Assembly (NCBI GenBank): GCA_964354795.1
Contig: CAYHBB010000003.1
Span: forward strand, 5,887-69,886
Origin: an uncultured Planctomycetales bacterium
Lineage (GTDB): Bacteria > Omnitrophota > Gorgyraeia > Gygaellales > Profunditerraquicolaceae
Length of the DNA: 64,000 nucleotides
Direction: 5' to 3'
Position numbers and translations under genes: made by a program. Under the pieces are notes generated by a model that was not told the DNA's origin, made no database searches, and was given only the letters and a program-made list of their open reading frames with translations. Numbering within the stretch: the first letter of the stretch is position 1; every line of letters starts with the position of its first letter. This document shows, piece after piece, positions 6,238 to 42,259 of the stretch.

Positions 6238-7483
6238 TTTGTTTATGGGCAGGTTTTTAGGTTCAGGCTATCAAAAACATCAAGAAGGCAATTTTGTCGC
6301 AAAAAAAGACCTTGTCTTAGAGGGGATACTTGATGGTTCTCTGGCTTTTTCTGGGCCTCAGACAGTCCAGTTCGATGTGACTAACCGTTGTAATAATAAT
6401 TGCTTGTGTTGTTGGAATAATTCTCCCTTTTTAGGCGATTTACCTGAGGATAGGCTAAAGGAAAAGGAAGACGAGCTGCCGTTAAAGCTCATAAAGAAGA
6501 TTTTCGCAGAATTGAAAGGCCTCGGTACTAAGAATTTGGTTCTTGCTGGAGGCGGAGAGCCATTTATGCATCCTAAGATTATTGATATTTTAAGCGCAGC
6601 AAAGAAATGTAATTTTCGCGTTTCTATTAATACGAATTTTACGCTTATTGATGAGAAAATTGCAAAAAAACTTGTAGATTTAAAGATCGATTTGATTCAT
6701 GTTAGTCTTCTCGCAGGTACTCCTAAAACTTATGCAGTGGTTCACCCCAATAAGACTGAGGAGACTTTTTTGCGGATAGTTCGGGTACTTAGATATATGG
6801 TTGAAGAAAGAAACAGGCGCTACCAAAACGGGCCTATACCTCAGCCGCACGTAGATCTTTATTATGTGATTTTTAATCAAAACTATCGTGACATACGGGC
6901 AATGACTGATCTTGCCATGGATTTGCGGGTCAATACGCTTGAATTTACACCTATTGACGTTATTCCCGGAAAGACAGATGTTCTGCTGCTTAATGAGCCC
7001 CAGAAAAGAGAAGTGCTCGAGTCTGTAATTGCGCAAAAGATTAGGCTCGAAGAGTTTAACCGGCAAAATGGGGGAAAAGTTACTTTTATTGAACAGTACG
7101 ATCCGTTTATAAAGCGCCTATCTGCAGAGAATGCCGTAAAAGGTCAATACGAGTCTACTACAATAGTGCAGCAGCCTTGTTATGTAGGATGGGCCTTTGC
7201 GCGCATACTTGCTAACGGTAATGTCACCCCTTGTCTTAAGGCCCATCGGGTGACAACGGGTAATATTTATAAGCAAAAGTTCAGGAATATTTGGAACAGC
7301 CCAGAGCAGCAGTTGTTTAGGAAGAAGGCTTTTATGCCCCAGAAAAACGATCAGTATTTGAGAAGTATTGGCAATAACCCCAGCGAGGACTCAGGTTGCC
7401 TTAGTAGTTGCGATAATATCCAGATTAACATTGAAATGCACGCAAAATATCATGCTGTAACTAACAAAAATGCGAAATCTTAA
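6218..7483 (+). CDS. radical SAM enzyme with a C-terminal SPASM/twitch-like Cys motif (paralog 1 of 3 in tandem)
   Basis: VTNRCNNNCLCCW (CxxxCxxC), GGGEPFMHP SAM-binding GGE motif, C-terminal PCYVGWAFARI...PC...GCLSSC cysteine cluster; overlaps the upstream gene. Confidence 0.75.
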   Translation: MKLRLFDLFMGRFLGSGYQKHQEGNFVAKKDLVLEGILDGSLAFSGPQTVQFDVTNRCNNNCLCCWNNSPFLGDLPEDRLKEKEDELPLKLIKKIFAELKGLGTKNLVLAGGGEPFMHPKIIDILSAAKKCNFRVSINTNFTLIDEKIAKKLVDLKIDLIHVSLLAGTPKTYAVVHPNKTEETFLRIVRVLRYMVEERNRRYQNGPIPQPHVDLYYVIFNQNYRDIRAMTDLAMDLRVNTLEFTPIDVIPGKTDVLLLNEPQKREVLESVIAQKIRLEEFNRQNGGKVTFIEQYDPFIKRLSAENAVKGQYESTTIVQQPCYVGWAFARILANGNVTPCLKAHRVTTGNIYKQKFRNIWNSPEQQLFRKKAFMPQKNDQYLRSIGNNPSEDSGCLSSCDNIQINIEMHAKYHAVTNKNAKS

Positions 7484-8696
7484 GAAATTCATAGCGGATA
7501 GAGATAAATTTTTTTTAGTCAGCGGAATACTTCATTCCTCAAGAGCTTTTATCGGCCCAGAAGTCCTTCATGTTGATTTAACTAACGTTTGTAATTTTAG
7601 TTGTATTGCATGCTGGTGTCGTTCCCCACTCTTGGAAGAAAAGGGAATGCCTGAATGGGAAAGGAAGCTAGCGCTGTCCACAGAAGTTGTAAAGAAAGCC
7701 TTTGACGATCTGGCAGGAATGGGGGGATTAAAGCAGGTCAAATTGGTTGGCGGCGGAGAGCCATTTATGCACCCGGACATCTTGGAAATCGTTGAATATA
7801 TCAAGGGAAAGAACAAAAATATCGCAATTGACATCAATACAAATTTTAGCCTTGTTGACCGATCTATTATTGGGAGGCTGTTGGAGCTTGGCGTTGATTC
7901 ATTAACCGTAAGCCTCTGGGCAGGAACTTTTAAAGCATATGTCGCAGTCCATCCAATGCAGAAGGAAGATATATTTTATAAAATAAAAGATAATCTTAAG
8001 TTCATATCTACAGAAAAGAACAGGCTAAACATTAAGAGACCCCGGATTGTCCTGCACGATGTCATTATGAACCTGAACTATGGGGACATGTGGGAGATGC
8101 TGCAATTTGGTCTTGATGTAGGAGCGGATGACATTCAGTTTGTCCCTATTGATCCTGTGAAGGGAAAAACAGAATCGCTGTTGCTTAATGATAGTCAAAG
8201 GGCTGAGTTATTGCAAGTAGCCCATAAAATATTGACGCGATACAATAGGAATAACTTTGAATATTTATCCGAGGATGGCCGTAGCATTACTCTTTCAGAT
8301 TTTGAGGGGTTTATCAGGCGTATCGAAAAGCTTGATACAAAAAGCGGCGTTTATGACGAGCTCCGTGTTGCGATGATACCTTGTTATGTTGGTTGGCTTT
8401 TTGCCCGGATAATGGCAACCGGAAATGTTGTGCCCTGTTGCAAGGGGCACCGTATGACTATGGGCAATGTCAATGAAGACAGCTTTAAGAGGATTTGGAA
8501 TGGTAAGCGATACCGTGAATTTAGGAATAAAGCCAAGAATATGGATAAATCAAATCCATATTTCTCCCTTTTTGGGAATGACGCCTCGACAGATACGGGT
8601 TGCTATAATTGTGATAATTTGTGGCAGAATGAGCCTATGCATAGGTTGATCAAGTCTTTACCCTTGCATAAACGTAAATTCTTGTTTTTTAAATGA
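7470..8696 (+). CDS. radical SAM enzyme with SPASM/twitch-like C-terminus (paralog 2 of 3)
   Basis: LTNVCNFSCIACWC, GGGEPFMHP, PCYVGWLFARI...PCC...GCYNCDN; clearly paralogous to the flanking genes. Confidence 0.75.
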   Translation: MRNLKKFIADRDKFFLVSGILHSSRAFIGPEVLHVDLTNVCNFSCIACWCRSPLLEEKGMPEWERKLALSTEVVKKAFDDLAGMGGLKQVKLVGGGEPFMHPDILEIVEYIKGKNKNIAIDINTNFSLVDRSIIGRLLELGVDSLTVSLWAGTFKAYVAVHPMQKEDIFYKIKDNLKFISTEKNRLNIKRPRIVLHDVIMNLNYGDMWEMLQFGLDVGADDIQFVPIDPVKGKTESLLLNDSQRAELLQVAHKILTRYNRNNFEYLSEDGRSITLSDFEGFIRRIEKLDTKSGVYDELRVAMIPCYVGWLFARIMATGNVVPCCKGHRMTMGNVNEDSFKRIWNGKRYREFRNKAKNMDKSNPYFSLFGNDASTDTGCYNCDNLWQNEPMHRLIKSLPLHKRKFLFFK

Positions 8697-10090
8697 AAGA
8701 CTATTCAAAAGAAAAATCAGTGATTTCTTTTCTTAACCACTATTGCCGAGATCACGGCGCAAAACGCACTTTACAAGGCTTCAGGCGCAATCTTAATCTA
8801 TGCAATCTTTTTGATGAATACCGTATTTTGAAAGGCATTGATAGCAGAATATATGCTTTTTGCTCGCCTTTATCTGTTCAGATCGATCTTACAAATGACT
8901 GCAATAATGATTGCCTCTGCTGCTGGTGTAATTCTCCTTTACGAAAAAATGAAGAAGTACGCCCTGACAAGTTATCGCTTGATTATGAAGTTATTTTGGG
9001 TGTTTTCGATGAATTGCAGCGTGCGGGGACGCGGGAGATCATTCTTTCCGGAGGAGGAGAACCATTTCTATACCCTCGATTATTCGAGGTAATTGCTGAG
9101 ATCAAGAAAAGAGGATTAATTACTCAGTTATATACAAATTTTACGCTAATCAACAAAGAATCAATCAAGAGTTTAGTTGAATTGGCTGTTGATCGCCTGA
9201 CAGTAAGCCTGTGGGCAGCAGATCCCAAGATGTATTGTATTTTGCACCCCAACAGGCAAGAGGCTGACTTTCTTAGGATTAAGGATAACCTAATTAACCT
9301 AAGAATAATGAAGCAGGGGCTTAAGAAGAATAAGCCAATTGTTTGCCTGCACAATGTTATTAACTCAAAGAATTTTCGTCAAATAAATGAGATGACTGAT
9401 TTTGCTATTTTGGTTGGCGCAGATGAAGTAAGGTTTTCAGTTGTAGATGTCATACCAGGCGTTACGGATGAGCTTTTACTTAGCGATGAACAGAGGCAGT
9501 TTGTAATCAAAGAATGTAAGGGGCTAAATAATAATAGCCGCATAACCGATCTGGGTAGGTTTATGCAGATGGTTTCTTCTGATGGCGCATCCAAAGGAGA
9601 ATATGATAGAGGTGTAGTTAATAATTACCCCTGCTATACAGGGTGGCTATTTGCTCGGATCAGGGCAGACGGAAGCGTTAACCCTTGTCTAAAGTCGCAT
9701 CGTATCAGTCTCGGGAATATCTACCAGAATAGTTTTAAAGAGATCTGGAATTCGCCTTTCGCGCAAGAATTTAGATCACAGGCCCAGAAGTTGAAGTCCG
9801 GAAACCCATATTTTTCTATGGTAGGTAACGGCAGCGGCACTGATATAGGCTGTTTCAGGGTATGTGATGATCTATCAAGGAATATTTTTATGTATAGAAA
9901 GCTTAAGTTCTATCCTACTACAAAAGTTCTCCGTGTGTTTATCGGCCTTAAGAGTGCAGTTGTCGGTAACTTTAAGATAATAAAACGCTGGTTTAATTTA
10001 TTTTATTTGTTTGGAGTGGTTATTTTATATAGCGTTATACTTAAACTGCGCAGGCTGGTAAGCAATATTACTATTTTCCCGGGAGAGTAA
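8693..10090 (+). CDS. radical SAM enzyme with SPASM/twitch-like C-terminus (paralog 3 of 3) and an extra hydrophobic C-terminal tail
   Basis: LTNDCNNDCLCCWC, GGGEPFLYP, PCYTGWLFARI...PC...GCFRVCDD; C-terminal VVILYSVILKL looks like a TM segment. Confidence 0.75.
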   Translation: MKDYSKEKSVISFLNHYCRDHGAKRTLQGFRRNLNLCNLFDEYRILKGIDSRIYAFCSPLSVQIDLTNDCNNDCLCCWCNSPLRKNEEVRPDKLSLDYEVILGVFDELQRAGTREIILSGGGEPFLYPRLFEVIAEIKKRGLITQLYTNFTLINKESIKSLVELAVDRLTVSLWAADPKMYCILHPNRQEADFLRIKDNLINLRIMKQGLKKNKPIVCLHNVINSKNFRQINEMTDFAILVGADEVRFSVVDVIPGVTDELLLSDEQRQFVIKECKGLNNNSRITDLGRFMQMVSSDGASKGEYDRGVVNNYPCYTGWLFARIRADGSVNPCLKSHRISLGNIYQNSFKEIWNSPFAQEFRSQAQKLKSGNPYFSMVGNGSGTDIGCFRVCDDLSRNIFMYRKLKFYPTTKVLRVFIGLKSAVVGNFKIIKRWFNLFYLFGVVILYSVILKLRRLVSNITIFPGE

Positions 10091-16368: not shown

Positions 16369-17496
16369 ATGAATAAGGAAGAAGAGCTGATTGTATCTTT
16401 ATTAAGAAGGGTTATTTCAGGCGAGAATGAGGGTTTCTGCGCTCAGGAGCATATTGAACGCATAAACTGGAATAGGTTTAAAGAATTAGTCTCGCACCAC
16501 GAGATACACCCGATATTATATCCTGTGGTGTTGGATTCCGCGTTTTTATTTCCTCCTGGTATGATTATTTTCTTAAAAGACAATTATTTCTATAATTTAA
16601 TTATTAACCAGAGGTTGTTAGGCGAATTTTCGTGTATATCTGAAGCTTTTAAGCAAGTCAAAATCGCAATAGTCCCCTTAAAAGGCGTAGCTTTTTTACA
16701 GGATATATATATGAATATTCCTTCGCGGCGGATGTCGGATATCGATTTACTGGTAGAAAAGAATAATCTGCCGCGCGCAAGAATAATTTTATCAGATTTA
16801 GGTTTCGTGGAACGTTTGGAAGGTCTTAGTCAAAACTATTGGTTAGAAAAACAATGCCACATCCCACTTTTGAAAAAGAATTCAGATAATGACATGATTG
16901 AACTGGATTTGCACTTTGGCCTTGATTTTAAGAGAGAGAAAGGGGAGATTTTGCCCCAGCTTTGGTCAAGGGCATGCAGCGGGACGCTGTCACCGGAGGA
17001 TTCGCTTTTCAGCCTGGCGCTTCATCAGCGCAGATTCGGAAAGGCGCTTTGCTTGAAGAATGTAGTTGACACCGGGCTAATCCTAAAAAAATACCAAAAT
17101 TCATTCGATTGGGATTATGTGATCAAGCAAGCGAAGTTAGGGCGGATGTGCTCAACGGTGTTTTTCTTGTTGGCGCAGGTAAAAAATATTTTTGATTCAG
17201 AAATAAACATGCCGAATTTAAACGTATTATGTTCAAGTCATCTTAAAAGAAAACTAATCTCGTCTTTTATTAAGAAAAATGTGTTTATCGATTCTTCTGC
17301 CAGAAAGGCAAATGAGCTGTATCTAAAAAGCCATTTTCTTCTGTATGATGATTTTTTTGAGCCCATAAAGTATATTTTAAATATTCCACAAGAGCAATTC
17401 GCCAAGTTTTATAAACTCAAGCCTTATAGCAAAGAAACTGTTTTTTTGTATAATAATAGAATATTGTATATATTATTTAGGTTAGTTTTAGGTTAG
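16369..17496 (+). CDS. uncharacterised nucleotidyltransferase-family protein (PF14907-like)
   Basis: LKGVAFLQDIYMNIPSRRMSDIDLLVEKN matches the Pol-beta-type [S]-x-D-[IL]-D-[LV] nucleotidyltransferase motif in a ~370-aa protein of the PF14907 type. Confidence 0.5.
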   Translation: MNKEEELIVSLLRRVISGENEGFCAQEHIERINWNRFKELVSHHEIHPILYPVVLDSAFLFPPGMIIFLKDNYFYNLIINQRLLGEFSCISEAFKQVKIAIVPLKGVAFLQDIYMNIPSRRMSDIDLLVEKNNLPRARIILSDLGFVERLEGLSQNYWLEKQCHIPLLKKNSDNDMIELDLHFGLDFKREKGEILPQLWSRACSGTLSPEDSLFSLALHQRRFGKALCLKNVVDTGLILKKYQNSFDWDYVIKQAKLGRMCSTVFFLLAQVKNIFDSEINMPNLNVLCSSHLKRKLISSFIKKNVFIDSSARKANELYLKSHFLLYDDFFEPIKYILNIPQEQFAKFYKLKPYSKETVFLYNNRILYILFRLVLG

Positions 17497-17526: not shown

Positions 17527-18306
17527 ATGAAAATTATCGTTTTAATGGCAGGAGAGGGTAGGCGTTTCGCAGGTTTTCAGAATATACCTAAACCTCTTGT
17601 AAAGCTTGGAAACGCCGAATTAATAAAATGGGCGGTCAATTCTTATAATTTTTTAGGATTAAGCGTTGACTGGTCGGATGTTTTTTTTATTACAAGAGAG
17701 GAATATATAAAAGATTTCTATATTGATCAAAAGTTAAAAGAGATGTTTTCACCCAAAGTTAATATTCGTTATGTCAAACAGACGACCCGTGGTCCTGCTG
17801 AGACTGCCATGTTGCTTGAAAAAGAAATACCTGCTGATGAGCAGGTAATAATCAGTGATTGCGATATGTTTTTTAATAGCCTGCCGTTATATATGGAAAT
17901 GATGAAAGTTAGAAATAATCCTTTAATCTGGGGGATATTGCCTTATGTGAAAAGAGATGATGACCAGAACAGCTGGAGTTATGCTCAGCTTGATAAGGAT
18001 AAAAAGTTAATTAAGGTTAATGAGAAGGATGAAAATATGTTTAAGGCAGGCTGTCCCGGCATTGTTGGCGCCTATGTTTTTAATCGGTGGAAATATTTCA
18101 CGAATGAAGCGAAGAAGATGATTGATGAAGATGATTTGAGCGGGGAAGAGCATAAAAAAGAATTCTATATGTCAAAAGTTTTTCAGCGTTTTATAAAGCA
18201 GGGGCGGACAGTAATCGGGGTAGATGTATATCCTGCATGGATCTTAGGTACGCCAGCGCAATTTGTCAGGTTCGAAAGCTTACTTAGGGGTGTAAAGGGA
18301 GAATGA
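17527..18306 (+). CDS. sugar- or alcohol-phosphate nucleotidyltransferase (GT-A-like NTP_transferase family)
   Basis: N-terminal IIVLMAGEGRRF...PKPLV glycine-rich loop, typical of RmlA/IspD/LicC-type nucleotidylyltransferases. Confidence 0.55.
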   Translation: MKIIVLMAGEGRRFAGFQNIPKPLVKLGNAELIKWAVNSYNFLGLSVDWSDVFFITREEYIKDFYIDQKLKEMFSPKVNIRYVKQTTRGPAETAMLLEKEIPADEQVIISDCDMFFNSLPLYMEMMKVRNNPLIWGILPYVKRDDDQNSWSYAQLDKDKKLIKVNEKDENMFKAGCPGIVGAYVFNRWKYFTNEAKKMIDEDDLSGEEHKKEFYMSKVFQRFIKQGRTVIGVDVYPAWILGTPAQFVRFESLLRGVKGE

Positions 18307-19559
18307 TGGATATAGATAAGTTTATATTTACGCAGGACTTTAATCCAGAGGATTATATAGTTGCAAGTTACTTTTTAGAGTCTACTGCAAATCTTAGCCT
18401 TTATGATATTTCAAGGCAGCTTGCTTTGGGGCAATCTATAGGGAATCCCGAGATAAGGTCTGTTTATGAAATAGAGGATCTTTTCCGGGATGTCTCAGTT
18501 AAGATTATGGCAGAATCTGGGGAGTTAAAAAGAGGGAATAAGGGTGAGGTTAAGTTCGCATTTCCTATTGCTAATCTTAATTTAAAAGAGGATGGGATTA
18601 ATCAATTATTATGTCATCTTATGGGAGGGCATCTTGATATTAATGCTATAAGCAAATGTTGGCTTTTTGATATAAAATTTCCCAAGAAATTCCTTGCTGT
18701 CTTTAAAGGGCCAAGGTTCGGGGTTACCGGAATACGCGAATTTATGAAAGTATATAATAAGCCTATTTTAGGGAGCATTATCAAGCCAAAAATCGGCTTA
18801 AATAAATATAAACTTTTGGATATTGTAAAGGAGCTAATTGATGGAGGGATAAATTTTATAAAGGAAGATGAGATTATGTCTAATCCTTCAATTTGTCCTT
18901 TAGAGGAAAGAGCTTCATATGTAATGAAGTATATTAATAATTCTTCCAGAAAGATTGTGTATGCTTTCTGCATAAATAGCGATTATCCTTACTTTATTGA
19001 TAGGGCAAAGAGAGTATATCAGATGGGAGGAAATTGTGTGCACTTAAATATCTGGTCAGGCCTTTCTGCATATAAATCTTTGAGAGATCTAGATTTGCCA
19101 ATAATGATATTCTTCCAGAAGAGCGGAAACATGATTTTCACCAACCCAAAGCACGATTTTCACATCAGTTGGAATGTTATATGTTATTTAGCTCGGCTTA
19201 TGGGAGTAGACTTTATGCATGTAGGGATGTGGGGAGGGTATTCTCATGATGAAGAATTTAGATTGCATGAGGCCATTAAAATACTTACTGATGTAAGTGA
19301 TGGTTTTAGGGGAACTTTGCCCTCGTTGTCTTGTGGTATGCATCCGGGGTTAGTCAATGCTATTTTAAACAGGTTTGGAATTAATGTGATGCTCAACGTG
19401 GGAGGCGCTATTCACGGTCATCCAAGCGGATCTAAGGCGGGTGCAGTCGCAATGAGACAGGCTATTGAATTATCGGTACAGAATAAATTTACTAAGGAAA
19501 ACATATATCAAGCTAAGGAATTAAGAGAAGCTATACAGAAATGGGGTTATATAGAATGA
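18303..19559 (+). CDS. RuBisCO large-subunit superfamily protein, most likely a RuBisCO-like protein (form IV) and not a carboxylase
   Basis: IIKPKIGLN matches the catalytic KPKLGLS motif; GGINFIKEDEIMSN matches GGLDFTKDDENVNS (carbamylated Lys and acidic residues); DFMHVG matches DHLHSG; NVGGAIHGHPSG matches GGGTLGHPWG. The loop-6 Lys334 equivalent appears replaced (GMWGGYSHDE versus GTVVGKLEGE). Confidence 0.7.
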   Translation: MMDIDKFIFTQDFNPEDYIVASYFLESTANLSLYDISRQLALGQSIGNPEIRSVYEIEDLFRDVSVKIMAESGELKRGNKGEVKFAFPIANLNLKEDGINQLLCHLMGGHLDINAISKCWLFDIKFPKKFLAVFKGPRFGVTGIREFMKVYNKPILGSIIKPKIGLNKYKLLDIVKELIDGGINFIKEDEIMSNPSICPLEERASYVMKYINNSSRKIVYAFCINSDYPYFIDRAKRVYQMGGNCVHLNIWSGLSAYKSLRDLDLPIMIFFQKSGNMIFTNPKHDFHISWNVICYLARLMGVDFMHVGMWGGYSHDEEFRLHEAIKILTDVSDGFRGTLPSLSCGMHPGLVNAILNRFGINVMLNVGGAIHGHPSGSKAGAVAMRQAIELSVQNKFTKENIYQAKELREAIQKWGYIE

Positions 19560-20278
19560 AAGTAATTATACCCTTGGCTGGCCCAGAGACAGAGGTGGAA
19601 AAAACATTTGGAGATTTTAAGAATTTAATTAATGTCTATGGCAAGCCTCTTATAAAATATGTTGCCGATAAAAGGCCGTATGATTTATCCAAAGCGGTAT
19701 TTATTTTAGTAGAGAAGACAAATAAAAAATATAACATTGCTTCAAGGTTAAAGAAATTGTTCGGTAATCGTATTGAAATATTTATTCTGGATAAAGTTAC
19801 CGAAGGCGCCCCTTGTTCAGTTTTGAAGTATCTCAAAGAGAGCGATACCAAGGGAGATATATTAATCGATTTAATCGATCAGCACCTTGATTTAGGGAGC
19901 GGTTTTATTAGTTTTATAAGGGATAACAGGCCTAAAGTAAAAGGAATAATTCCTACTTTTAAAAGCAAATATTGGAAATGGAGCTATGTGAAATTAGATA
20001 AGGGGGGTTTTGTAACGAAGGTTAAAGAAAAGGTAAACCCGCCGATATCTAAGGATGCTACTGTAGGGGTATATTATTTCTCGAGTGCTAAGGATTTTAT
20101 TGCGGCTACGGAGCAGATGATCGGTCTTAATAAAAGGGCAGAGTTTAATAACAAATTCTTCATTAGCTGTGTATACAACGAATTTCCACGGAAAACAGTT
20201 TTAGCTTATCCTGCAAACATAATATGTCCTCTGGGCTCAGTTGAGGGAATAAGAACCTTTTCGCAAGTAACATGGTAA
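19541..20278 (+). CDS. nucleotidyltransferase-like (GT-A fold) protein; the start may be the internal ATG at 19556
   Basis: MKVIIPLAG...GKPLIKYV resembles the N-terminus of cytidylyl/guanylyl-transferases but the glycine loop is degenerate. Confidence 0.35.
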   Translation: MGLYRMKVIIPLAGPETEVEKTFGDFKNLINVYGKPLIKYVADKRPYDLSKAVFILVEKTNKKYNIASRLKKLFGNRIEIFILDKVTEGAPCSVLKYLKESDTKGDILIDLIDQHLDLGSGFISFIRDNRPKVKGIIPTFKSKYWKWSYVKLDKGGFVTKVKEKVNPPISKDATVGVYYFSSAKDFIAATEQMIGLNKRAEFNNKFFISCVYNEFPRKTVLAYPANIICPLGSVEGIRTFSQVTW

Positions 20279-20889
20279 TATTTTCGCATAGAGGTATAAG
20301 TTTCGGCAGTAAGGAAAACTCACTTGGCAACTTTAAGAATGCAATTAAAGAAGGGTTTTCTATTGAAGCGGACTTAAGGATAAAAGGTGCAAGGGTTATT
20401 CTTTCGCATAATGAGAGAGGGGAGAATATATTTGAATTTGAAGGTTTGATAGAGTTGGCATTGGAGTATCCGGATTTACTGTTTGCTCTTCATCTAAAGG
20501 AGGATTCAGAAGTATTAATAAATAGAGCCAGCCAAGCCATTAACGGAAAAAAGAATTGTTTTCTTTTTTGTACAGATTTCCCGCAGGAATCTTTTATTAG
20601 AAAGTTTTACAAAGAAATTGCTAAGGATAATTTAGCTTTGTATATTACAGAAAGAGAAATATGCCCTGATCTAGTTAATAAAGTGGATTATTTATGGCTG
20701 GATGAGACAAAGCAGGAGATTTATAGAGATTTAAGTCATTTTAAGAAGTTTAACAAAAAAATTATCTGCTGCTCGCCGGAATTATCTCTAAGATGTATTA
20801 ATGATAAAAAAAATGCTTCTTTCGAAAAAGTAGTTAAGGATCAGGGTCTTTTTGGTATCTGCACAGATTTTCCTGGAAAATTTAGATAA
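20272..20889 (+). CDS. glycerophosphodiester phosphodiesterase (GDPD) family protein
   Basis: IFSHRG...ENSLGNFKNAIKEGFSIEADLRIKG...ILSHNE follows the GDPD HRG...EN...E.D...HD pattern. Confidence 0.6.
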   Translation: MVIFSHRGISFGSKENSLGNFKNAIKEGFSIEADLRIKGARVILSHNERGENIFEFEGLIELALEYPDLLFALHLKEDSEVLINRASQAINGKKNCFLFCTDFPQESFIRKFYKEIAKDNLALYITEREICPDLVNKVDYLWLDETKQEIYRDLSHFKKFNKKIICCSPELSLRCINDKKNASFEKVVKDQGLFGICTDFPGKFR

Positions 20890-20932: not shown

Positions 20933-22600
20933 ATGGCCATGGATATCGAATTTAAGAAAACTATAGTTTATATCACTTTGATTATCTTGTGTATAGCAAT
21001 ACTTAGGCTTCCGACTATTTTTTGCCCTTTTTATAATGTGGATGAGGGCGTAAGCGCTGTGATTGGCAATACCATACTGGATGGTGGCATTGTGTATCGG
21101 GATGCCATTGATCATCGAGGCCCGATCACCTACTTTATTTATGCTTTAATTTTTTCGCTTTTCGGTAGAAATAATATGGTGGCAGTTCATTTTTCGTTGA
21201 TTTTATTAATTTTGCTTATTTCCATTATTTTGTTTCTTATAAGTAGTTTGGCTTGGAATAGAAGGGCCGGTTACTTTGCCGCTTTATTTTTTGGGATATT
21301 TTCATATGCTTACTCTTCTAAAGATATGTGGGCTTTCCATACAGAATGGTGCGCTGTACTTTTTAGTACAATAGGAGCCTATTTTTTCATAAGATTCATT
21401 TTTAAGAGCAAAACATATTTTCTTTTTCTAAGTGGAGTTTTTTTTGGGTTATCCTTTTTTTCTAAGCAAACAGCTTTACTTGATTATTTAATTACATTAT
21501 TATTTTGTGGTATTTTCGTTTATTTTAAGCGAAAAAGTATAGACACTTTAATCAAGCCCCTTGTTTTAATGACAGGAGGGTTTTTTATAATAACTATAAT
21601 ATTTGTCTATTATTTTTATATTAATAATGCTTTAAATGATTTTTGGTTTTATTTTTGGCAATACAATACTAAATACTATTTACCGGCAGTTCCTGTTTTA
21701 TTGAGAATAAAATTAGCTTTTGGTTATTTGTTGAATGCGCAATCTTTTTTAGGACGAAATTATCTATTATTGGTTTTTTTTGTTTGCGCTAGTTTTATAG
21801 CGGTCCGTAATTTTTTAAATAACTATAAACGACTTAATAGAGAATTGGTTATTAGTTTCTATCTTATTTGTTGGGCTATTTTTTCTTATATTGGTGCGGT
21901 TTTTACTGGAAGGAACTTCGGTCATTACTTTATTATGACTCTTCCTTCATTATGTCTTCTGAGTGGGAAAACGATAGAGGATATAAATATTTTTATAAGT
22001 TCTTATGCAAAGTCTGGCGATTATAAGAATAAGGCTGAAGCATTTAAAAAATACATTATTAAGATATTTCTAATGATTTTTTTAATAGTTGGTATTCTTT
22101 ATTCGCTGCGCCCTGTTTATTGGATGAGGAGTTTTAAGAAATTAATTTCTGATAAAAACGAAGAAAGAAGATTTTTATTAGAGAAGGATTTAGTTATGCT
22201 CACCGAGTACATAATAAAGAATAGCAGTGAACATGATAAAATATTAATATGGGGGTTTTATCCACAAATTTATATTTTAGCTAAGCGTATGCCTGCTACT
22301 CGGTATACATATTCCAATTTCTTGACTGGCATGATAACCCGTTCAAATGCACAGCCATTTATAGATACTCCTGAAACTATCGTTCCTGGAACTTGGAAGA
22401 TATTCATTGATGAGTTAGGAAGAAATAAGCCAATTTATATTGTTGACACTAGCGTTGGAAACCACTACGGGTATGGTATTTATCCACCTGATAAATTCTC
22501 AGATTTAAATAACTTCTTAAAAGAAAATTATATTATAGAGAAGGAATTTTTTAACGAAGAAGGAGCTATTTCTTTTAGGCTTTTTAAAAGAAATAAATAG
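20933..22600 (+). CDS. polytopic membrane glycosyltransferase, GT-C superfamily
   Basis: FYNVDEGVSAVIG DE motif after TM1; more than 10 TM helices. Confidence 0.5.
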   Translation: MAMDIEFKKTIVYITLIILCIAILRLPTIFCPFYNVDEGVSAVIGNTILDGGIVYRDAIDHRGPITYFIYALIFSLFGRNNMVAVHFSLILLILLISIILFLISSLAWNRRAGYFAALFFGIFSYAYSSKDMWAFHTEWCAVLFSTIGAYFFIRFIFKSKTYFLFLSGVFFGLSFFSKQTALLDYLITLLFCGIFVYFKRKSIDTLIKPLVLMTGGFFIITIIFVYYFYINNALNDFWFYFWQYNTKYYLPAVPVLLRIKLAFGYLLNAQSFLGRNYLLLVFFVCASFIAVRNFLNNYKRLNRELVISFYLICWAIFSYIGAVFTGRNFGHYFIMTLPSLCLLSGKTIEDINIFISSYAKSGDYKNKAEAFKKYIIKIFLMIFLIVGILYSLRPVYWMRSFKKLISDKNEERRFLLEKDLVMLTEYIIKNSSEHDKILIWGFYPQIYILAKRMPATRYTYSNFLTGMITRSNAQPFIDTPETIVPGTWKIFIDELGRNKPIYIVDTSVGNHYGYGIYPPDKFSDLNNFLKENYIIEKEFFNEEGAISFRLFKRNK

Positions 22601-22686: not shown

Positions 22687-24000
22687 CTAATGACCATTAA
22701 GTAATAATGAGTTTTGGTTGATAAACTTTTGTATATTTAAAATAACCCCATCCATATTAATATAATCCCAATTACCGCTTCTGCCTAACAAATACAAATT
22801 ATGTTCTTTTAATATATTACGTATATTATCCCTGACTTCTTCCATGCCAACGGTTGGAATCGGATAGGTGTATTCTTTTAATTTTATTTCAGTTTTCTCA
22901 ATCTCATTCTCAGATTTGATTATCCCCTTTCTAATAAGATCTCTTATAACTCGGGATACTATCTCTTCAACACTAGTATTAATAATATAGTCTTTTTGGG
23001 TTATCTCTGCTACGAGTACAGGCAAGAATTCGTGGCTAAAATTATGCATAAGAGTAACACGATAGAAAACCTCATCTTCTTTAAAGAATACCCAATGACA
23101 ATTATTAATTAATTGAAATGTTGCCCCTTTTTTAAGCCCTATCATTACAAAGAAAGTATTATTCCACTTTAATACATTATATTCTTTTTTCACGCCATTT
23201 ATGTTTATTTTTGTGAGAAGTTCCGGCAATGGAATTGTCGAGATTACAATGTCAGCCTCTTCTTTTAAGTCGTCTTTCGTAATAATAGTCCATTTATTGT
23301 TATGTTTGATCAACTTTTTTACACAGGAATCCAATATTATATTATTACCTATATCTTTTGCGGTATAATCTATTAATTTCTGTATGCCTTGTTTCGGGTA
23401 TATAAATTTTGATTGATATTCTCTTCCAGCAACTTTCTTACCAAGGATAGAAGCTATGAAATTAATGATTGATACCGGTTCAACCCTTGAATTAACCAAT
23501 GATTCTGATATTTCAGACAGATCACAATTCCAGATCTTGGAATTATAAGGAATCATAAAATTTCTAGCGATGCCTTCTCCAAGTCGATTATCTATCCAGT
23601 TTTTCAGATTAGAACTTTTTTCTTTGCGTCTTTTCTGAGCAGTTAAATATCCTTTGATGCACTCCAATTTATCACTTAGAGGTAGATTCTTGATTCCGAT
23701 TTCAAACGGGTATTCGATTATATATCTTCTTCCATCACTACCGCTGTGGAATATTTTAGCATTTCTGTTTAAATGTTCGTAATCAAGCGGTAGAGAAAGA
23801 AAATAATTTGTTACCTCGCTGTTTTTGCTACATATAGCGTGAACTGCAAAATCCCAATAGTAGTCACCTGTTTTATTGGTTTGACATAGGCCGCCTATTT
23901 TGCACTCCTTCTCAAAAATAATAAACTTATTTCCTAATTCTTTGAGATGTCTTCCTAGCTCTATACCCGTAAGACCTGCGCCTAATATTGCTATTTTCAT
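22687..24000 (-). CDS. FAD-dependent oxidoreductase, UDP-galactopyranose mutase / amine-oxidase-like
   Basis: MKIAILGAGLTGIELG...IIFEKECKIGGLC dinucleotide-binding fold followed by a GG...H..... segment resembling UGM. Confidence 0.5.
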   Translation of the reverse strand: MKIAILGAGLTGIELGRHLKELGNKFIIFEKECKIGGLCQTNKTGDYYWDFAVHAICSKNSEVTNYFLSLPLDYEHLNRNAKIFHSGSDGRRYIIEYPFEIGIKNLPLSDKLECIKGYLTAQKRRKEKSSNLKNWIDNRLGEGIARNFMIPYNSKIWNCDLSEISESLVNSRVEPVSIINFIASILGKKVAGREYQSKFIYPKQGIQKLIDYTAKDIGNNIILDSCVKKLIKHNNKWTIITKDDLKEEADIVISTIPLPELLTKININGVKKEYNVLKWNNTFFVMIGLKKGATFQLINNCHWVFFKEDEVFYRVTLMHNFSHEFLPVLVAEITQKDYIINTSVEEIVSRVIRDLIRKGIIKSENEIEKTEIKLKEYTYPIPTVGMEEVRDNIRNILKEHNLYLLGRSGNWDYINMDGVILNIQKFINQNSLLLNGH

Positions 24001-24728
24001 ATTTTTCGATAAGTGAGTTTTATTTTAATGATATCATTTAATAATTCAAAGATTATGGAAGGTAATTTGGTGGGCCTGAATATTCCGGTTGTGCCATATT
24101 TACGCGGGTAATGCGTAATTGGGATTTCTTTGATCTTATATCCCTTAAGGTGGGCTTTCAAAATAAATTCCGACATTACGCAATATTTAAAGTTTAAGCC
24201 ATCTTGTAAAATATCTTCTATTACCTTTCGCTTTATTATTTTGAATCCGGAATCGGCATCTTTCATTTTTAACCGAAATAATATAAAAAGCAGGAAATTG
24301 TACATTTTTGAAATAATTACTCTATACGTAGGATCATACCTGGACATTTTGTACCCGCTTACTATGTCATTTTTGTCTATTTCCTTTAATAATTTAAATA
24401 TATCCGCAGGATCATGTTGTCCGTCTGAGTCACTAAATAATATCAACTCCGTTTTAGGTATTCCTAAAGCATCTATGAAAGCGGTTGTATACCCTTTTCT
24501 TTCTTTGCTACTTATCAAATCAAAAGGTATCTCTTCATTGAGCTTATGCAGTATTTCTTTTGTCCCGTCTACGCTTCCATCTTCAGCTACTATGAATTTG
24601 GTGCCCGGTATTTTTTTTATCACCTTCCCATATATGTCTCGTATGACCGTCTCAATGATCCGTGCTTCATTATAAACAGGAATCACTAAAGTAAGACTGA
24701 TGTTTGTATTTTTTACATTTTTATTCAT
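23997..24728 (-). CDS. GT2 polyprenol-phosphate glycosyltransferase (DPM1/GtrB-like, soluble form)
   Basis: LVIPVYNEARII...VAEDGSVDGT, DSDGQHDP, C-terminal RKYGTTG; overlaps the upstream gene by 4 nt. Confidence 0.7.
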   Translation of the reverse strand: MNKNVKNTNISLTLVIPVYNEARIIETVIRDIYGKVIKKIPGTKFIVAEDGSVDGTKEILHKLNEEIPFDLISSKERKGYTTAFIDALGIPKTELILFSDSDGQHDPADIFKLLKEIDKNDIVSGYKMSRYDPTYRVIISKMYNFLLFILFRLKMKDADSGFKIIKRKVIEDILQDGLNFKYCVMSEFILKAHLKGYKIKEIPITHYPRKYGTTGIFRPTKLPSIIFELLNDIIKIKLTYRKI

Positions 24729-29610: not shown

Positions 29611-30996
29611 ATGAAAATACTTTTTGTCCAATTTGAACCTCGCGAAAGCTTAGCAGTCGAGTACCTTTCTGCCTACTTGCAAGGATTTGGACATTCCACC
29701 AGCGTACTTATTGTTGGTATTACGTCTCCTTCTAGGATTATATCGCAGATTCAATCGAATCAGCCTGGCATGATTTGTGTTACTGATTCGGGTTCTGATG
29801 CTGAAAGAATCAAGGTCCTTTCAGCTTTGCTAAAAAAGAATAGTAGTGCGAAAATTGTAATAGGTGGCTATATAACTATAAATAAAGAAGAAGTCTTTGA
29901 GAAAGATAGTAATGTAGATGCCTATTGCATAGGAAGCGGATTTTATCTTTATGGGTTGATACAGTATTATGAGGGCAATTATCCAGCTGAAAATATTCCT
30001 AATTTTATTATAAGACGCAATGGCACGTTAATAAGGAATAAGCTCGATAGCGATTCACATTTTTGCGATTTTAAGGATAGGGATATGTTTATTTATCGCG
30101 AGTACCCATTCCTGTATTACAGTATATTTCCTTTCGTTATGGCATCTTATGGTTGTATTAATAATTGTAGTTTTTGTTTCTATTCTGGTTTTAAAAGTAG
30201 ATTTGGCAAAAGGGCAGGACTTTGCTATAAAAAGCCGGATCTCGTTTTAAAGGAAATACTTCAGATGCAGAAAATTAATAGGTATTTCAAGTGCTTTAAT
30301 TTTGTCGACGACAATATGTCAAATGATATTGGTTGGCTCACTGACCTAATGAGTATTATTAAGCCATTAGGACTGAGGTTTTTTGCTAAAATAGATATTA
30401 ATAGTTGTACCGAAGAAATGATAAGGATGATGCGGGAGGCTGGCTTATTTGGAGCAACTATCGGAATAGAGCATATAAATCAGAATATAAGAGAGTCATT
30501 GTTAAATAAGAATTTCACTAATGATAAGCTTATTCAAGTGATTTCGTGGCTTAGGAAATATGGTGTGCATATCCGGGCGTATTTTATAATCGGCCTACCC
30601 TATCAAACTGCAGAAGATGTCTCAGAAAATGTTTCATTTGCAAGGAGGCATGGCTTAAAAGAGGCAGCATTTACTTTTCTAGCCTTACTTCCTAATACCG
30701 TGCTCAGAGAAAAAATAATGAATGAATATAGGGATGAGGATTTAAAGAAAGTGTTTCCTCTCTCAAAAGCACTGTTATCGCGCTTACAGCTTCAGCAGGA
30801 GCCGATGTTTTTGTCTGGCGCCCCGTTATATATTTCACAACTCATATGCAAAGCTTACTTTATTTGTCTGAAATTAAGGTATTATCCTCTTGGTGCCATC
30901 AATTTATTTTTATACGGCTGTCGTTTATCCAGCTACTTTATAAAAGAATATGTATTAAATATCTTCGATTCCGTCAGTTTAAAAAAATGTCGATAG
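29611..30996 (+). CDS. B12-binding radical SAM protein (class B)
   Basis: N-terminal B12-binding-like domain (MKILFVQFEP...), CINNCSFC CxxxCxxC, followed by a TIM-barrel-length domain. Confidence 0.8.
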   Translation: MKILFVQFEPRESLAVEYLSAYLQGFGHSTSVLIVGITSPSRIISQIQSNQPGMICVTDSGSDAERIKVLSALLKKNSSAKIVIGGYITINKEEVFEKDSNVDAYCIGSGFYLYGLIQYYEGNYPAENIPNFIIRRNGTLIRNKLDSDSHFCDFKDRDMFIYREYPFLYYSIFPFVMASYGCINNCSFCFYSGFKSRFGKRAGLCYKKPDLVLKEILQMQKINRYFKCFNFVDDNMSNDIGWLTDLMSIIKPLGLRFFAKIDINSCTEEMIRMMREAGLFGATIGIEHINQNIRESLLNKNFTNDKLIQVISWLRKYGVHIRAYFIIGLPYQTAEDVSENVSFARRHGLKEAAFTFLALLPNTVLREKIMNEYRDEDLKKVFPLSKALLSRLQLQQEPMFLSGAPLYISQLICKAYFICLKLRYYPLGAINLFLYGCRLSSYFIKEYVLNIFDSVSLKKCR

Positions 30997-31017
30997 AGCC
31001 AGGGAATATTTAAGAGA

Positions 31018-31761
31018 ATGAAAAGCATTTCAATTGTTTATCCAGTTTATAATGAAGAATCCTATGTTAAATTGACCATAGAGCAAGCGCTAGCAACTAT
31101 TTCAAAAATAACCAATGATTTTGAAATAATTGTTGTTAATGACGCAAGTTCAGATAATACCTTGGCCCTATTGAGAGAATATTCCAGAGATAATAACAAG
31201 ATAAAGATTTATTGTAATGAGACTAATAACAAATTAGGTGGGACTTTAAGAAAAGGCTTCAAAGAGGCGACTAAAGAGCTAGTGCTTTATTCTGATTTTG
31301 ATATGCCATTTGACCTGAAGGATGTCAATGAAGCCCTAGAAATATTTAATAAAGAAAAAGCCGATTTACTATCTGCATACAGAATAAATAGGGAAGTCGA
31401 TGGCTTAAAAAGAACCGTTTATAGCATTATTTATAATTGGCTAGTTAATTTTCTATTTAAAATTAATCTAAAAGATATTAATTTCTCTTTTAAGCTATTC
31501 AATAGGAGGATATTGGATAGTATTATTTTAGAATCGGAGGGGTCATTTATTAGCGCAGAGTTCCTAATAAGAGCGAAAATGCAAGGTTTTAAAATCGTGC
31601 AATTTCCAGTTATGTATTATTCTAGAAGTAAGGGACGCTCTCGTTTAGCTTCTATCGGTGTAGTGGTAAAGATAATAAAAGAGCTTTGTATTTTTTATTT
31701 TGTAAATTTTAACGCCATTATAAAGAGAAATATTTTGGGGGGGAAAGTCATTGGGTATTAA
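31018..31761 (+). CDS. GT2 polyprenol-phosphate glycosyltransferase-like (DPM1/GtrB-type) protein
   Basis: SIVYPVYNEESYV...IIVVNDASSDNT, DFDMPFD, RSKGRSRL. Confidence 0.7.
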   Translation: MKSISIVYPVYNEESYVKLTIEQALATISKITNDFEIIVVNDASSDNTLALLREYSRDNNKIKIYCNETNNKLGGTLRKGFKEATKELVLYSDFDMPFDLKDVNEALEIFNKEKADLLSAYRINREVDGLKRTVYSIIYNWLVNFLFKINLKDINFSFKLFNRRILDSIILESEGSFISAEFLIRAKMQGFKIVQFPVMYYSRSKGRSRLASIGVVVKIIKELCIFYFVNFNAIIKRNILGGKVIGY

Positions 31762-31808
31762 AGTTATTATAGGTCAGAAGCTACTAAGCCCGGGGAGGGT
31801 GCTGGACC

Positions 31809-33185
31809 TTGGATAAAAAAAGAATCCTGTTATTGGTTCCGCCAGCTGGTAAGCAGTATATCCGGGATTATTACTGCAGCTTCTCTTCTAAGGCGGGCTA
31901 CTATTGGCCACCGCAAGATTTAGTCGTTTTAAGCGGCAGTTTAAGCAAAATGTTTGAGCTAGAGGTGATTGATGCTATCGCCTTAAAGTTGAGTTTGCAA
32001 GATTGCCTTAAAGCGGTTTCGCGCAGTAATGTTGATATGATTATTGCTGCGACCGGGACTGCAACCTTGAACGATGATCTTAATTTCCTGGAGCTTGTAA
32101 AGAACAATGATCCGCTAATAAAAATAGTCCTCTCTAGCTCGATATTTCTCTCTCTCGGAAACAGGTTTTTGCTTGAGTATTATTTTATTGACGGAGTTAT
32201 GCTGGACTTTACAAATGATGATGTTGCGAACTATATATTAGGTAAATATGACGCTATCGTGAGCATGTATTTTAGAAAAGGCGGCGAAATCATTAACAGG
32301 TGCTCTGAGCCTGACAAGTCATTTAGCATAGCGATACCTCGACATGATTTATTTATAGATAAAGGATATAGGCTCCAGTTATTTAAAAAAGAAAACTTTG
32401 TAATAACTATTACTTCAATCGGCTGTCCTTACAAATGTTCTTTTTGCTGCGCTGGGGCCGTGAGATACAGGACCAGGACAATCGATAACGTTATGGAAGA
32501 ATTAAAATTCGTTAAGAATGCCTTGGGAATTAGAAACATTTTCTTTGCTAATCCTATCTTTTTTGTAAGTAAAGAATACGCTGTAGAACTTCTTAATTCA
32601 ATAATTAAAAATAAGTTAGCCGGAATTGAATGGATTGCAAATGTGCGCGTAGATATCTTAGATGAGGAATTGATAAGCTTAATGAAACAGGCTGGATGCA
32701 AGGCGTTATTGTTTGGCATTGAGAGCGGTGATCAAGATATACTGGATAAATACGGGAAAGGCATTTCTTTATCTGAAAGCAAGATTATTTTTAAGCTATG
32801 TAAGAGGCATAATATCTCTACTTTGGCCTATTTTATGCTAGGTTTTCCTGAAGACAACCAAACATCTATTGATAAGACTTTAAGGTATGTGAAAGAGGCG
32901 GCTTGTGATTATATTTCAGTCGGCTTTGCCGTACCGGACATAGGCACTAGATTAAGGGGCAGGGTTATTGAAGAAAATTATTGTTCGGTAGACTTTCTGA
33001 ACAGTTGGGACAGTTCCGCAGCTCCGTACATCAAAAATATCTCATTTTCACAAGAAGAGTTAGTAAGGATAAGAAAGAGAATATACCGCAGCTTTTATTT
33101 GCGTCCTGGGTGGATTATGCGGCATTTACTTGAACTAAACCTCAAGGATTTAATCAGCGGTGGAGCGAGGATATTAAGCAATTAA
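31809..33185 (+). CDS. B12-binding radical SAM protein (class B)
   Basis: RILLLVPPAG B12-binding domain; CPYKCSFC CxxxCxxC. Confidence 0.8.
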   Translation: MDKKRILLLVPPAGKQYIRDYYCSFSSKAGYYWPPQDLVVLSGSLSKMFELEVIDAIALKLSLQDCLKAVSRSNVDMIIAATGTATLNDDLNFLELVKNNDPLIKIVLSSSIFLSLGNRFLLEYYFIDGVMLDFTNDDVANYILGKYDAIVSMYFRKGGEIINRCSEPDKSFSIAIPRHDLFIDKGYRLQLFKKENFVITITSIGCPYKCSFCCAGAVRYRTRTIDNVMEELKFVKNALGIRNIFFANPIFFVSKEYAVELLNSIIKNKLAGIEWIANVRVDILDEELISLMKQAGCKALLFGIESGDQDILDKYGKGISLSESKIIFKLCKRHNISTLAYFMLGFPEDNQTSIDKTLRYVKEAACDYISVGFAVPDIGTRLRGRVIEENYCSVDFLNSWDSSAAPYIKNISFSQEELVRIRKRIYRSFYLRPGWIMRHLLELNLKDLISGGARILSN

Positions 33186-42137: not shown

Positions 42138-42259
42138 ATAAGCAATTCTTGCGAACATGGCAAATCGTCTTTTGAGATGTTACATAACTGGGCTATAAAT
42201 GGAGAGAAGATTTGGTCAACGATAAATCGGAATATTTTTCTAAGGTGGCTATGCATGTA

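Follow-up and report, generated by a model that had tools for sequence, protein, structure and literature searches.

Gene organisation of the RLP locus

The 64,000-nt stretch of contig CAYHBB010000003.1 (assembly GCA_964354795.1) analysed here, hereafter the window, derives from an uncultured bacterium of the Omnitrophota lineage and carries on its forward strand four co-directional open reading frames (ORFs; nt 17527–18306, 18303–19559, 19541–20278 and 20272–20889), the second of which codes for a RuBisCO-like protein (RLP), the main subject of this study. The four genes were annotated as follows:

17527..18306, + strand: NTaseA, a canonical sugar-phosphate nucleotidyltransferase (NTase) of 259 aa (MAGEGRRF G-loop, PF12804)
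18303..19559, + strand: RLP of 418 aa, a member of a non-carboxylating orphan clade by its predicted active site (PF00016, AlphaFold2 (AF2) model)
19556..20278, + strand (ORF opens at 19541): NTaseB, an NTase-fold paralogue without the GxGxR nucleoside triphosphate (NTP) loop (homology to the NTase domain)
20272..20889, + strand: minimal GDPD-fold phosphodiesterase of 205 aa, predicted to be cytoplasmic (AF2 model, Foldseek, catalytic residues)

All three junctions are overlapping. The NTaseA stop codon lies over the RLP start codon (4 nt overlap), the RLP and NTaseB genes meet in an ATGA at nt 19556–19559, and NTaseB and the GDPD-like gene meet in an ATGGTAA at nt 20272–20278. Because of the ATGA, nt 19556 is likely the true start of NTaseB, in agreement with the start of an 86%-identical orthologue. 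The overlap of the RLP gene with the NTase-like genes on both sides, already described in an initial annotation of this DNA, is thus one of stop and start codons. An antisense ORF of 119 aa within the RLP gene (nt 18614–18973, - strand) is a mechanical ORF with no support.

A RuBisCO fold with a predicted non-carboxylating active site

The large-subunit motifs from which the initial annotation recognised the RLP were all found in the ORF (IIKPKIGL, GGINFIKEDE, DFMHVG and GGAIHGHP), and the protein falls inside the RuBisCO superfamily. Its catalytic domain matches PF00016 (residues 141–414, E 7.4e-40), while the N-terminal domain, weak in sequence (E 0.0096), is present in the AF2 model. The latter, built with 20 homologues (pLDDT 88, pTM 0.89), gave TM-scores of 0.85–0.89 to form III RuBisCOs over approximately 420–440 columns and of 0.84 to the enolase MtnW. 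The best solved relative is likewise a form III RuBisCO (E 3.7e-44, 27% identity), with MtnW as a close second.

The 19 classic active-site residues were mapped via a HMMER alignment to 8DHT; residues are given in spinach numbering, placed from the standard RuBisCO motifs. Ten of the 19 are retained (K175, K177, K201, D203, E204, H327, S379, G381, G403 and G404) and nine are changed, eight by substitution (E60G, T65N, W66P, N123G, H294Q, R295K, H298N and G380C) and K334 by a five-residue deletion at the place of GKLEG, so that the loop-6 lysine suspected to be missing is indeed absent. The carbamate/Mg2+ core and the P1 loops are therefore kept, whereas changes affect the residues that handle CO2 as well as the cationic P2 site, which speaks against a carboxylase. 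RuBisCO fold, conserved K201/D203/E204 and replaced carboxylase residues are the generic sequence features of form IV RLPs, as had been proposed for this protein, and by its active-site residues the RLP is a predicted non-carboxylating, enolisation-type member of the superfamily.

The resulting signature (G60 N65 P66 G123 I173 K175 K177 K201 D203 E204 Q294 K295 N298 H327 S379 C380 G381 G403 G404, with K334 deleted) is near-invariant at the 19 sites over 116 distinct family sequences, cellular and viral, and this conservation argues for one conserved reaction. More speculatively, a larger substrate, perhaps one linked to a nucleotide, may find room in the site owing to the G/N/P/G set at the four N-domain residues and to the short loop 6.

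That the protein is a true form II/III carboxylase working in nucleoside (AMP) salvage would be in line with its top-scoring curated model and its best structural matches, all of which are of form III RuBisCOs. This explanation is nonetheless effectively refuted, since the form III model (rubisco_III) scores 213 versus a cut-off of 497, substitution of E60, T65, W66, N123, H294, R295, H298 and G380 and loss of K334 are almost universal in the family, and neither AMP phosphorylase, nor ribose-1,5-bisphosphate (R15P) isomerase, nor phosphoribulokinase turned up among the 49 window ORFs scanned; the lack of the first two had been noted from the beginning.

No NCBIfam model (June 2026) captures the family, every match being far under its cut-off, including those to the other RuBisCO models (PRK04208, 195 versus 438; PRK13475, 98 versus 489). 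Two specific assignments were rejected, namely MtnW/YkrW (PRK09549, 193 versus 409; TIGR03332, 168 versus 514; 28.9% identity to an annotated mtnW and no mtn genes nearby) and the 3-oxo-isoapionate-4-phosphate decarboxylase OiaX (162 versus 700; 27.5% identity to an annotated oiaX). One family member is labelled 'hypothetical protein' by NCBI. The family is compact, and a family-specific RLP segment of 69 aa matched only 30 representatives at 50% clustering. In a quick neighbour-joining distance tree of the 116 RLPs the window lineage lies apart from a SAR11/DPANN block of like architecture, from which no conclusion was drawn.

The flanking nucleotidyltransferases

NTaseA carries the GxGxR loop as MAGEGRRF and matches PF12804 with 28 bits (cut-off 27). 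Its best PDB match is 4EVW, a nucleoside diphosphate (NDP)-sugar pyrophosphorylase, and NCBIfam shows a resemblance to the N-terminal domains of archaeal GlmU and of MurU, no equivalog cut-off being reached. The canonical NTase is nearest to RmlA, GlmU, MurU and AglF, with 1e-13 to RmlA/GlmU types versus 0.013 to IspD and 0.04 to KdsB. An orthologue with 89% identity occupies the equivalent position in the closest related loci (L001–L003).

The initial annotation had placed the RLP between two nucleotidyltransferase-like genes. Both neighbours are indeed homologous to NTases, but only NTaseA has the catalytic GxGxR loop. In NTaseB, which is 29% identical (E 2e-21) to the canonical NTase domain of an RLP::NTase fusion and has no Pfam match, this loop is replaced by LAGPETE; by homology NTaseB is thus a predicted NTase-fold paralogue that falls outside the canonical enzymes by its NTP loop. 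Its homologues form approximately 45 clusters at 63–86% identity, hence the gene is conserved and not decaying. The same degenerate class also occurs in SAR11 and DPANN cassettes, and in one locus it is fused to a GDPD-like domain (see below).

Directly upstream of the four genes (nt 16369–17496) lies an NTP_transf_5 gene (PF14907, 'uncharacterised nucleotidyltransferase', E 4e-33), which is outside the conserved cassette of the closest relatives L001–L003.

A small GDPD-fold phosphodiesterase

The GDPD label originally given to the product of the fourth gene stands as regards fold and catalytic residues and falls short as regards the Pfam model: the PF03009 match is below cut-off (15.3 versus 23.6 bits, E 0.022) and covers residues 6–48 only, and a PF03009 match is precomputed for 5 of 22 homologues. 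The AF2 model (pLDDT 86) is an 8-stranded TIM barrel, for which 18 of the 19 top Foldseek matches against the PDB are GDPDs (E down to 1e-8, TM 0.62–0.74), the remaining one being a phage spike protein. The H-R / E-N / E-x-D / H catalytic and metal set is conserved; in particular, H6, R7, N16, E32, D34, H46, K76 and E170 are invariant in both the long form and a short form of 140–165 aa, and E15 is kept in the window lineage.

With the catalytic HR at residues 6–7 there is no leader peptide, and the protein is therefore predicted to be cytoplasmic. This disagrees with the earlier proposal that it trims the finished envelope polymer, as does the fact that in other loci its homologues occur in fusions with an NTase-fold domain, a methyltransferase or a putative transferase. 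If the GDPD-like protein trims at all, its substrate would be a cytoplasmic intermediate and not the finished polymer.

In the related loci the GDPD-like partner is mostly of the 140–165 aa size (for instance L007:6272-6700, L029:5800-6258 and L063:9436-9903). These short forms represent an exceptionally small version of the GDPD-type barrel, or possibly partial barrels dependent on oligomerisation.

Distribution of the cassette in cellular genomes and viruses

Database searches retrieved 2221 relatives of the RLP. Those at 67–87% identity share the four-gene order of the window, and the same four genes stand beside the 87%-identical RLP. A large set of homologues lies at approximately 50% identity. 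In 27 of the 120 top homologue clusters, a canonical NTase is joined to the C-terminus of the RLP.

Scanning of the GTDB species genomes led to 45 RLP loci, nearly all with an adjacent NTase, in Pelagibacter/SAR11 (including a complete genome), Patescibacteria including Beckwithbacteria, DPANN archaea, Verrucomicrobia, Elusimicrobia, Turneriella, Azospirillum and three cultured Legionella species. In IMG/VR the RLP was found on 369 viral contigs, among them giant-virus metagenome-assembled genomes (MAGs) and contigs of 190–290 kb; 80 of these viral loci were examined, and an NTase was present in about all of them, a cupin in 63 and a GDPD-like gene in 64–74.

Related loci (127 in total) were compared by means of greedy ORF calls labelled by BLAST. 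A canonical NTase, a small cupin, the RLP and a short GDPD-like protein (140–165 aa) make up the architecture of 65 loci, and NTase, RLP and GDPD-like protein that of 16. The window type, with canonical NTase, RLP, degenerate NTase and GDPD-like protein, occurs in 15 and is shared with SAR11 and DPANN. The cupin partner (approximately 107 aa) has an invariant H-x-H...E metal triad and reaches no Pfam model cut-off; its nearest solved relatives include dioxygenases, and no solved close relative was found in a profile search. Cupin and degenerate NTase hardly ever occur together (in a single one of the 127 loci), suggesting either that one pathway slot is filled differently or that there are two product variants.

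Five types of gene fusion were observed: RLP::NTase, NTase::cupin (15 of the 80 viral loci), degenerate NTase::GDPD-like (L008), GDPD-like::S-adenosylmethionine (SAM) methyltransferase (L136, 49% identical to the window protein) and GDPD-like::c6 (L109). The RLP is therefore tightly coupled to a canonical NTase and to a GDPD-fold phosphodiesterase by gene order, by translational overlap and by fusion. The functional link between the RLP, its flanking NTase genes and the GDPD-like gene, which was first suggested from the window alone, is supported by its conservation in about 127 loci of distant taxa and viruses and by several independent fusions.

Phage-type genes (DnaB, PhoH, NT5C, RegA and Acb5) are found next to the cassette and support a phage origin of those loci. 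The cassette is present on a 427.5-kb phage-like contig (L132, ENA contig_137578) beside Acb5 (anti-CBASS), RNA ligase and LAGLIDADG genes. Two GTDB MAG contigs assigned to Balneola and Sphingobacteriales (L047 and L050) also look like phage DNA binned into MAGs, as judged by eye from the sequences of their PhoH-like, GroES-like and GT25-like genes. No RLP match was found among cultured phage genomes (INPHARED), and plasmids carry distant RLP clades only, at less than 32% identity.

Distant cellular members are those of Legionella/Tatlockia (L044–L046 and L048), where a compact LicD-RLP-NTase arrangement, without GDPD-like gene and cupin, codes for an RLP 34% identical to that of the window. 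This may represent a functionally distinct offshoot.

The cassette lies in a glycan island

Over the related loci, the recurrent neighbours of the cassette are family 2 glycosyltransferases (GT2), FkbM, Methyltransf_24 and Methyltransf_11/23 methyltransferases, WavE, short-chain dehydrogenase/reductase (SDR) dehydratases/epimerases, DegT aminotransferases and radical SAM proteins. The window itself is occupied by a 56-kb envelope-polysaccharide island with GT1 and GT2 enzymes, three GT-C enzymes (PMT_2), numerous radical SAM and SAM methyltransferases, and genes for an ABC-2 exporter and a Wzy_C/O-antigen ligase; the glycan setting described in the initial annotation was thus confirmed. No homologue of the cupin, of WavE, of c6 or of LicD was found in the window. 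Two glycosyltransferase genes are located close to the cassette:

20933..22600, + strand: GT-C (PMT_2/ArnT-like) membrane glycosyltransferase, candidate user of the product by its putative association with the cassette (PF13231, E 2e-11)
23997..24728, - strand: polyprenyl-phosphate GT2 (DPM1/ArnC/GtrB-like), candidate first acceptor enzyme, also by putative association (PF00535, E 1e-20)

The best PDB match of the GT2 is the dolichol-phosphate-mannose (Dol-P-Man) synthase 5MLZ (6e-13), followed by ArnC and GtrB, and in 13 of 48 cellular loci a GT2 of the same cluster (c1) is found no more than a few genes away from the RLP. A multi-pass membrane protein comparable to the GT-C follows the cassette in Turneriella (L042).

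Between the two, a flavin amine-oxidase/NAD_binding_8 protein of 437 aa is encoded on the - strand (nt 22687–24000); its gene overlaps that of the polyprenyl-phosphate GT2 by 4 nt, thus the two are probably co-transcribed, and the protein could be an oxidoreductase or mutase acting on a sugar nucleotide or a lipid-linked sugar.

Radical SAM genes are unusually dense in the island, with at least ten of them (nt 2485–10090, 29611–33185, 42212–43891, 49361–50404 and 52046–54762). One codes for a 1250-aa protein in which two radical SAM stretches are combined with a B12-binding domain; three SPASM-type enzymes are encoded in a row, and several further enzymes bind B12 (class B methylase-like). The GC content rises from 0.32–0.39 to 0.44–0.47 at approximately nt 56000–64000, marking the end of the island just past the Wzy_C/O-antigen ligase gene (nt 55775–56920, - strand); beyond this point a sigma-70 family gene, a CHAT-TPR protein (nt 58419–60416) and a BNR/sortilin-like protein are encoded.

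A putative route to an unusual nucleotide sugar

Taken together, we consider it probable, on the strength of the conserved gene associations and predicted enzyme classes, that the RLP serves as the signature enzyme of a cassette that is conserved and horizontally mobile, and whose product is most likely an unusual nucleotide-activated sugar destined for surface glycans. The RLP would isomerise or epimerise a keto-sugar phosphate from central metabolism by Mg2+-stabilised enediolate chemistry, and the NTase, fused or adjacent, would convert the resulting rare sugar phosphate to an NDP-sugar. The cupin, where present, would tailor the NDP-sugar, and the GDPD-like enzyme would come in late, its substrate being a cytoplasmic intermediate with a nucleotide or phosphodiester linkage and its action being coordinated with methylation or transfer. 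This order is suggested by the fusions, which pair RLP with NTase, NTase with cupin, and the GDPD-like protein with a methyltransferase, a putative transferase or a degenerate NTase. In the window, the product would be passed to the polyprenyl-phosphate GT2 and then to the GT-C transferase of an envelope-polysaccharide island of the ABC-transporter/O-antigen-ligase type.

The initial annotation had instead proposed that the NTase product is transferred to the polymer as a phospho-substituent. In its extended form, this alternative holds that the RLP reshapes a sugar- or polyol-phosphate, that the NTase makes of it a CDP-alcohol-type donor, and that a LicD/WavE-type transferase attaches the phospho-X group, the GDPD-like enzyme trimming or uncovering the phosphodiester, possibly together with methylation. 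It would supply the phosphodiester that a phosphodiesterase needs, a GDPD::methyltransferase fusion exists, WavE-family/DUF7796-like genes recur beside the cassette and one of them is fused to the GDPD, and LicD (PF04991, E 6e-44) stands directly upstream of RLP and NTase in the four Legionella/Tatlockia loci. However, the canonical NTase is far nearer to the RmlA/GlmU types than to IspD or KdsB, as reported above, and the window lacks LicD, WavE and c6 homologues, whereas a Dol-P-Man-synthase/ArnC-like GT2 and a GT-C adjoin its cassette. Moreover, the Legionella proteins, with their low identity and without GDPD-like and cupin partners, may act differently. Because NTaseA is nearer to sugar-1-phosphate NTases, and because the nearest transferases of the window are of the polyprenyl-phosphate GT2 and GT-C types, a glycosyl donor is favoured, and we regard the phospho-substituent as a possible but distinctly less probable outcome.

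In B. subtilis methionine salvage, the cupin dioxygenase MtnD follows the phosphatase MtnX. By analogy with MtnW-MtnX-MtnD, the cassette might serve the salvage or detoxification of a SAM by-product or nucleotide, with the RLP as enolase/isomerase, the GDPD-like protein as phosphoesterase and the cupin as dioxygenase/lyase, and with coincidental glycan genes. The enzyme classes do parallel the RLP enolase and MtnX phosphatase of B. subtilis and the RLP and cupin methylsulfurylase of Rhodospirillum rubrum (PMC6302742). The metal triad of the cupin and the dioxygenases among its nearest solved relatives would also fit, as would the richness of the window in radical SAM genes, which release 5'-deoxyadenosine. 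On the other hand, the tightest and even fused partner of the RLP is a nucleotidyltransferase, needless in salvage routes; the neighbours are consistently glycosyltransferases, sugar methyltransferases and SDRs across phyla and viruses; no mtnK-, mtnA-, mtnB- or mtnP-type genes recur; and the NCBIfam MtnW model scores 193 versus a cut-off of 409. Such a role thus appears improbable.

Several observations weigh against the nucleotide-sugar route that we prefer. No kinase, mutase, phosphorylase or MtnA-type isomerase was found among the recurrent cassette neighbours, which leaves the origin of the sugar-1-phosphate unexplained, and the phosphodiesterase has no obvious place in a simple NDP-sugar route. 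The P2 site R295/H298/H327 has become K/D(N)/H(Q), so that the classical bisphosphate binding mode is lost. The LicD gene (of a phospho-alcohol transferase family) directly upstream of the distant Legionella members fits a CDP-alcohol donor better. Furthermore, gene calls in the related loci are simple greedy ORFs with BLAST labels, and the IMG/VR contigs are predicted, not cultured, viruses, the cultured phage genomes having given no match.

In a bolder version of the nucleotide-sugar route, the RuBisCO fold would have been recruited for nucleotide-sugar synthesis. A common ketose phosphate, or else a pentose-1-phosphate derived from SAM or a nucleoside, would become a rare sugar phosphate, to be activated directly by the fused NTase, the usual kinase or mutase being bypassed; the GDPD-like enzyme would act on a nucleotide-linked or cyclic phosphodiester, and the outcome would be a new, probably methylated surface sugar in SAR11, the candidate phyla radiation (CPR), DPANN, jumbo phages and giant viruses. 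In this complete form the scheme is put forward tentatively, as rather unlikely to hold in all its parts.

Comparison with known systems

Divergent RLPs have been described by Jaffe et al. (2019) as a form IV-like clade, with approximately 80 putative phage sequences, one of them a phage genome of about 200 kb, as well as Beckwithbacteria (PMC6389311). This clade branches outside the other RLPs, keeps only some of the key residues, and its function was called 'unclear' (PMC6389311). The family studied here likewise includes a Beckwithbacteria MAG (50% identity) and the 369 IMG/VR contigs, phage-like ones of 190–430 kb among them, and it is probably the same clade, matched by that clade's description and not by sequences. 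Neither the NTase/cupin/GDPD cassette nor the glycan context was reported in that paper (PMC6389311). Novel groups of RuBisCO homologues were also noted in ocean metagenomes by the Global Ocean Sampling study (PMC1821046).

As regards the characterised RLPs, in Bacillus methionine salvage the RLP enolase MtnW is followed by the phosphatase MtnX (PMC6302742). MtnW, a 2,3-diketo-5-methylthiopentyl-1-phosphate enolase, shares with the window protein K175, K201, D203 and E204, the fold (TM 0.84) and a phosphoesterase partner. It differs in that identity is 27–29%, no mtn genes are present here, a GDPD-fold phosphodiesterase takes the place of the HAD phosphatase, and an NTase partner is a constant feature. 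The R. rubrum RLP, an isomerase of 5-methylthioribulose-1-phosphate that acts by proton transfer, pairs with a cupin methylsulfurylase in the methylthioadenosine (MTA)-isoprenoid shunt (PMC6302742). A gene partnership of RLP and cupin is therefore common to both systems, but the cassette cupin is of another family, there is no sulfur or isoprenoid context, and the NTase and GDPD-like genes stand here in glycan loci. Other characterised RLPs are decarboxylases of apiose pathways (PMC6302742). None of these three (MtnW, R. rubrum isomerase, apiose decarboxylases) is associated with an NTase or with glycan synthesis. A full-text search of the accessible literature brought up no paper that connects an RLP with nucleotidyltransferases or with capsule, O-antigen or glycan synthesis, in agreement with the initial annotation, to which no such role in envelope glycan synthesis was known.

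On the nucleotide-sugar side, AlgA/ManC (type II phosphomannose isomerase/GDP-mannose pyrophosphorylase) is an NTP_transferase fused to a cupin isomerase, which couples the activation of a sugar-1-phosphate by an NTase to the isomerisation of a sugar phosphate by a metal cupin. The NTase::cupin fusions of the viral cassettes have the same domain architecture; the cassette differs in adding the RLP and the GDPD-like protein and in its cupin of approximately 107 aa, and the window itself is without a cupin. In the ArnC/ArnT (L-Ara4N) and GtrB/Gtr systems, a DPM1-like GT2 makes a polyprenyl-phosphate sugar that is used by a GT-C, and both enzyme types stand beside the window cassette. The mycobacterial methylthioxylose cap (Rv0539/Rv0541c) is a further polyprenyl-phosphate sugar route. 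To our knowledge, no such route uses a RuBisCO-family enzyme for its sugar.

Significance

RLPs are a classic case of functional divergence within an enzyme superfamily, and several of their clades are still orphans. What is new here is a conserved, repeatedly fused NTase-RLP-GDPD(-cupin) cassette, which points to a concrete pathway context in glycan biosynthesis for one such orphan clade. This clade is abundant in viruses, as its IMG/VR contigs indicate, and is present in SAR11, among the most numerous organisms of the ocean. Distant members in cultured Legionella and the compact four- and five-gene cassettes make the system experimentally accessible. If the proposed route is true, it would represent a new reaction type in nucleotide-sugar biochemistry and would explain a common viral auxiliary gene, and its product would be a surface sugar with a bearing on how phages and hosts recognise each other, both in the ocean and in ultra-small symbionts.

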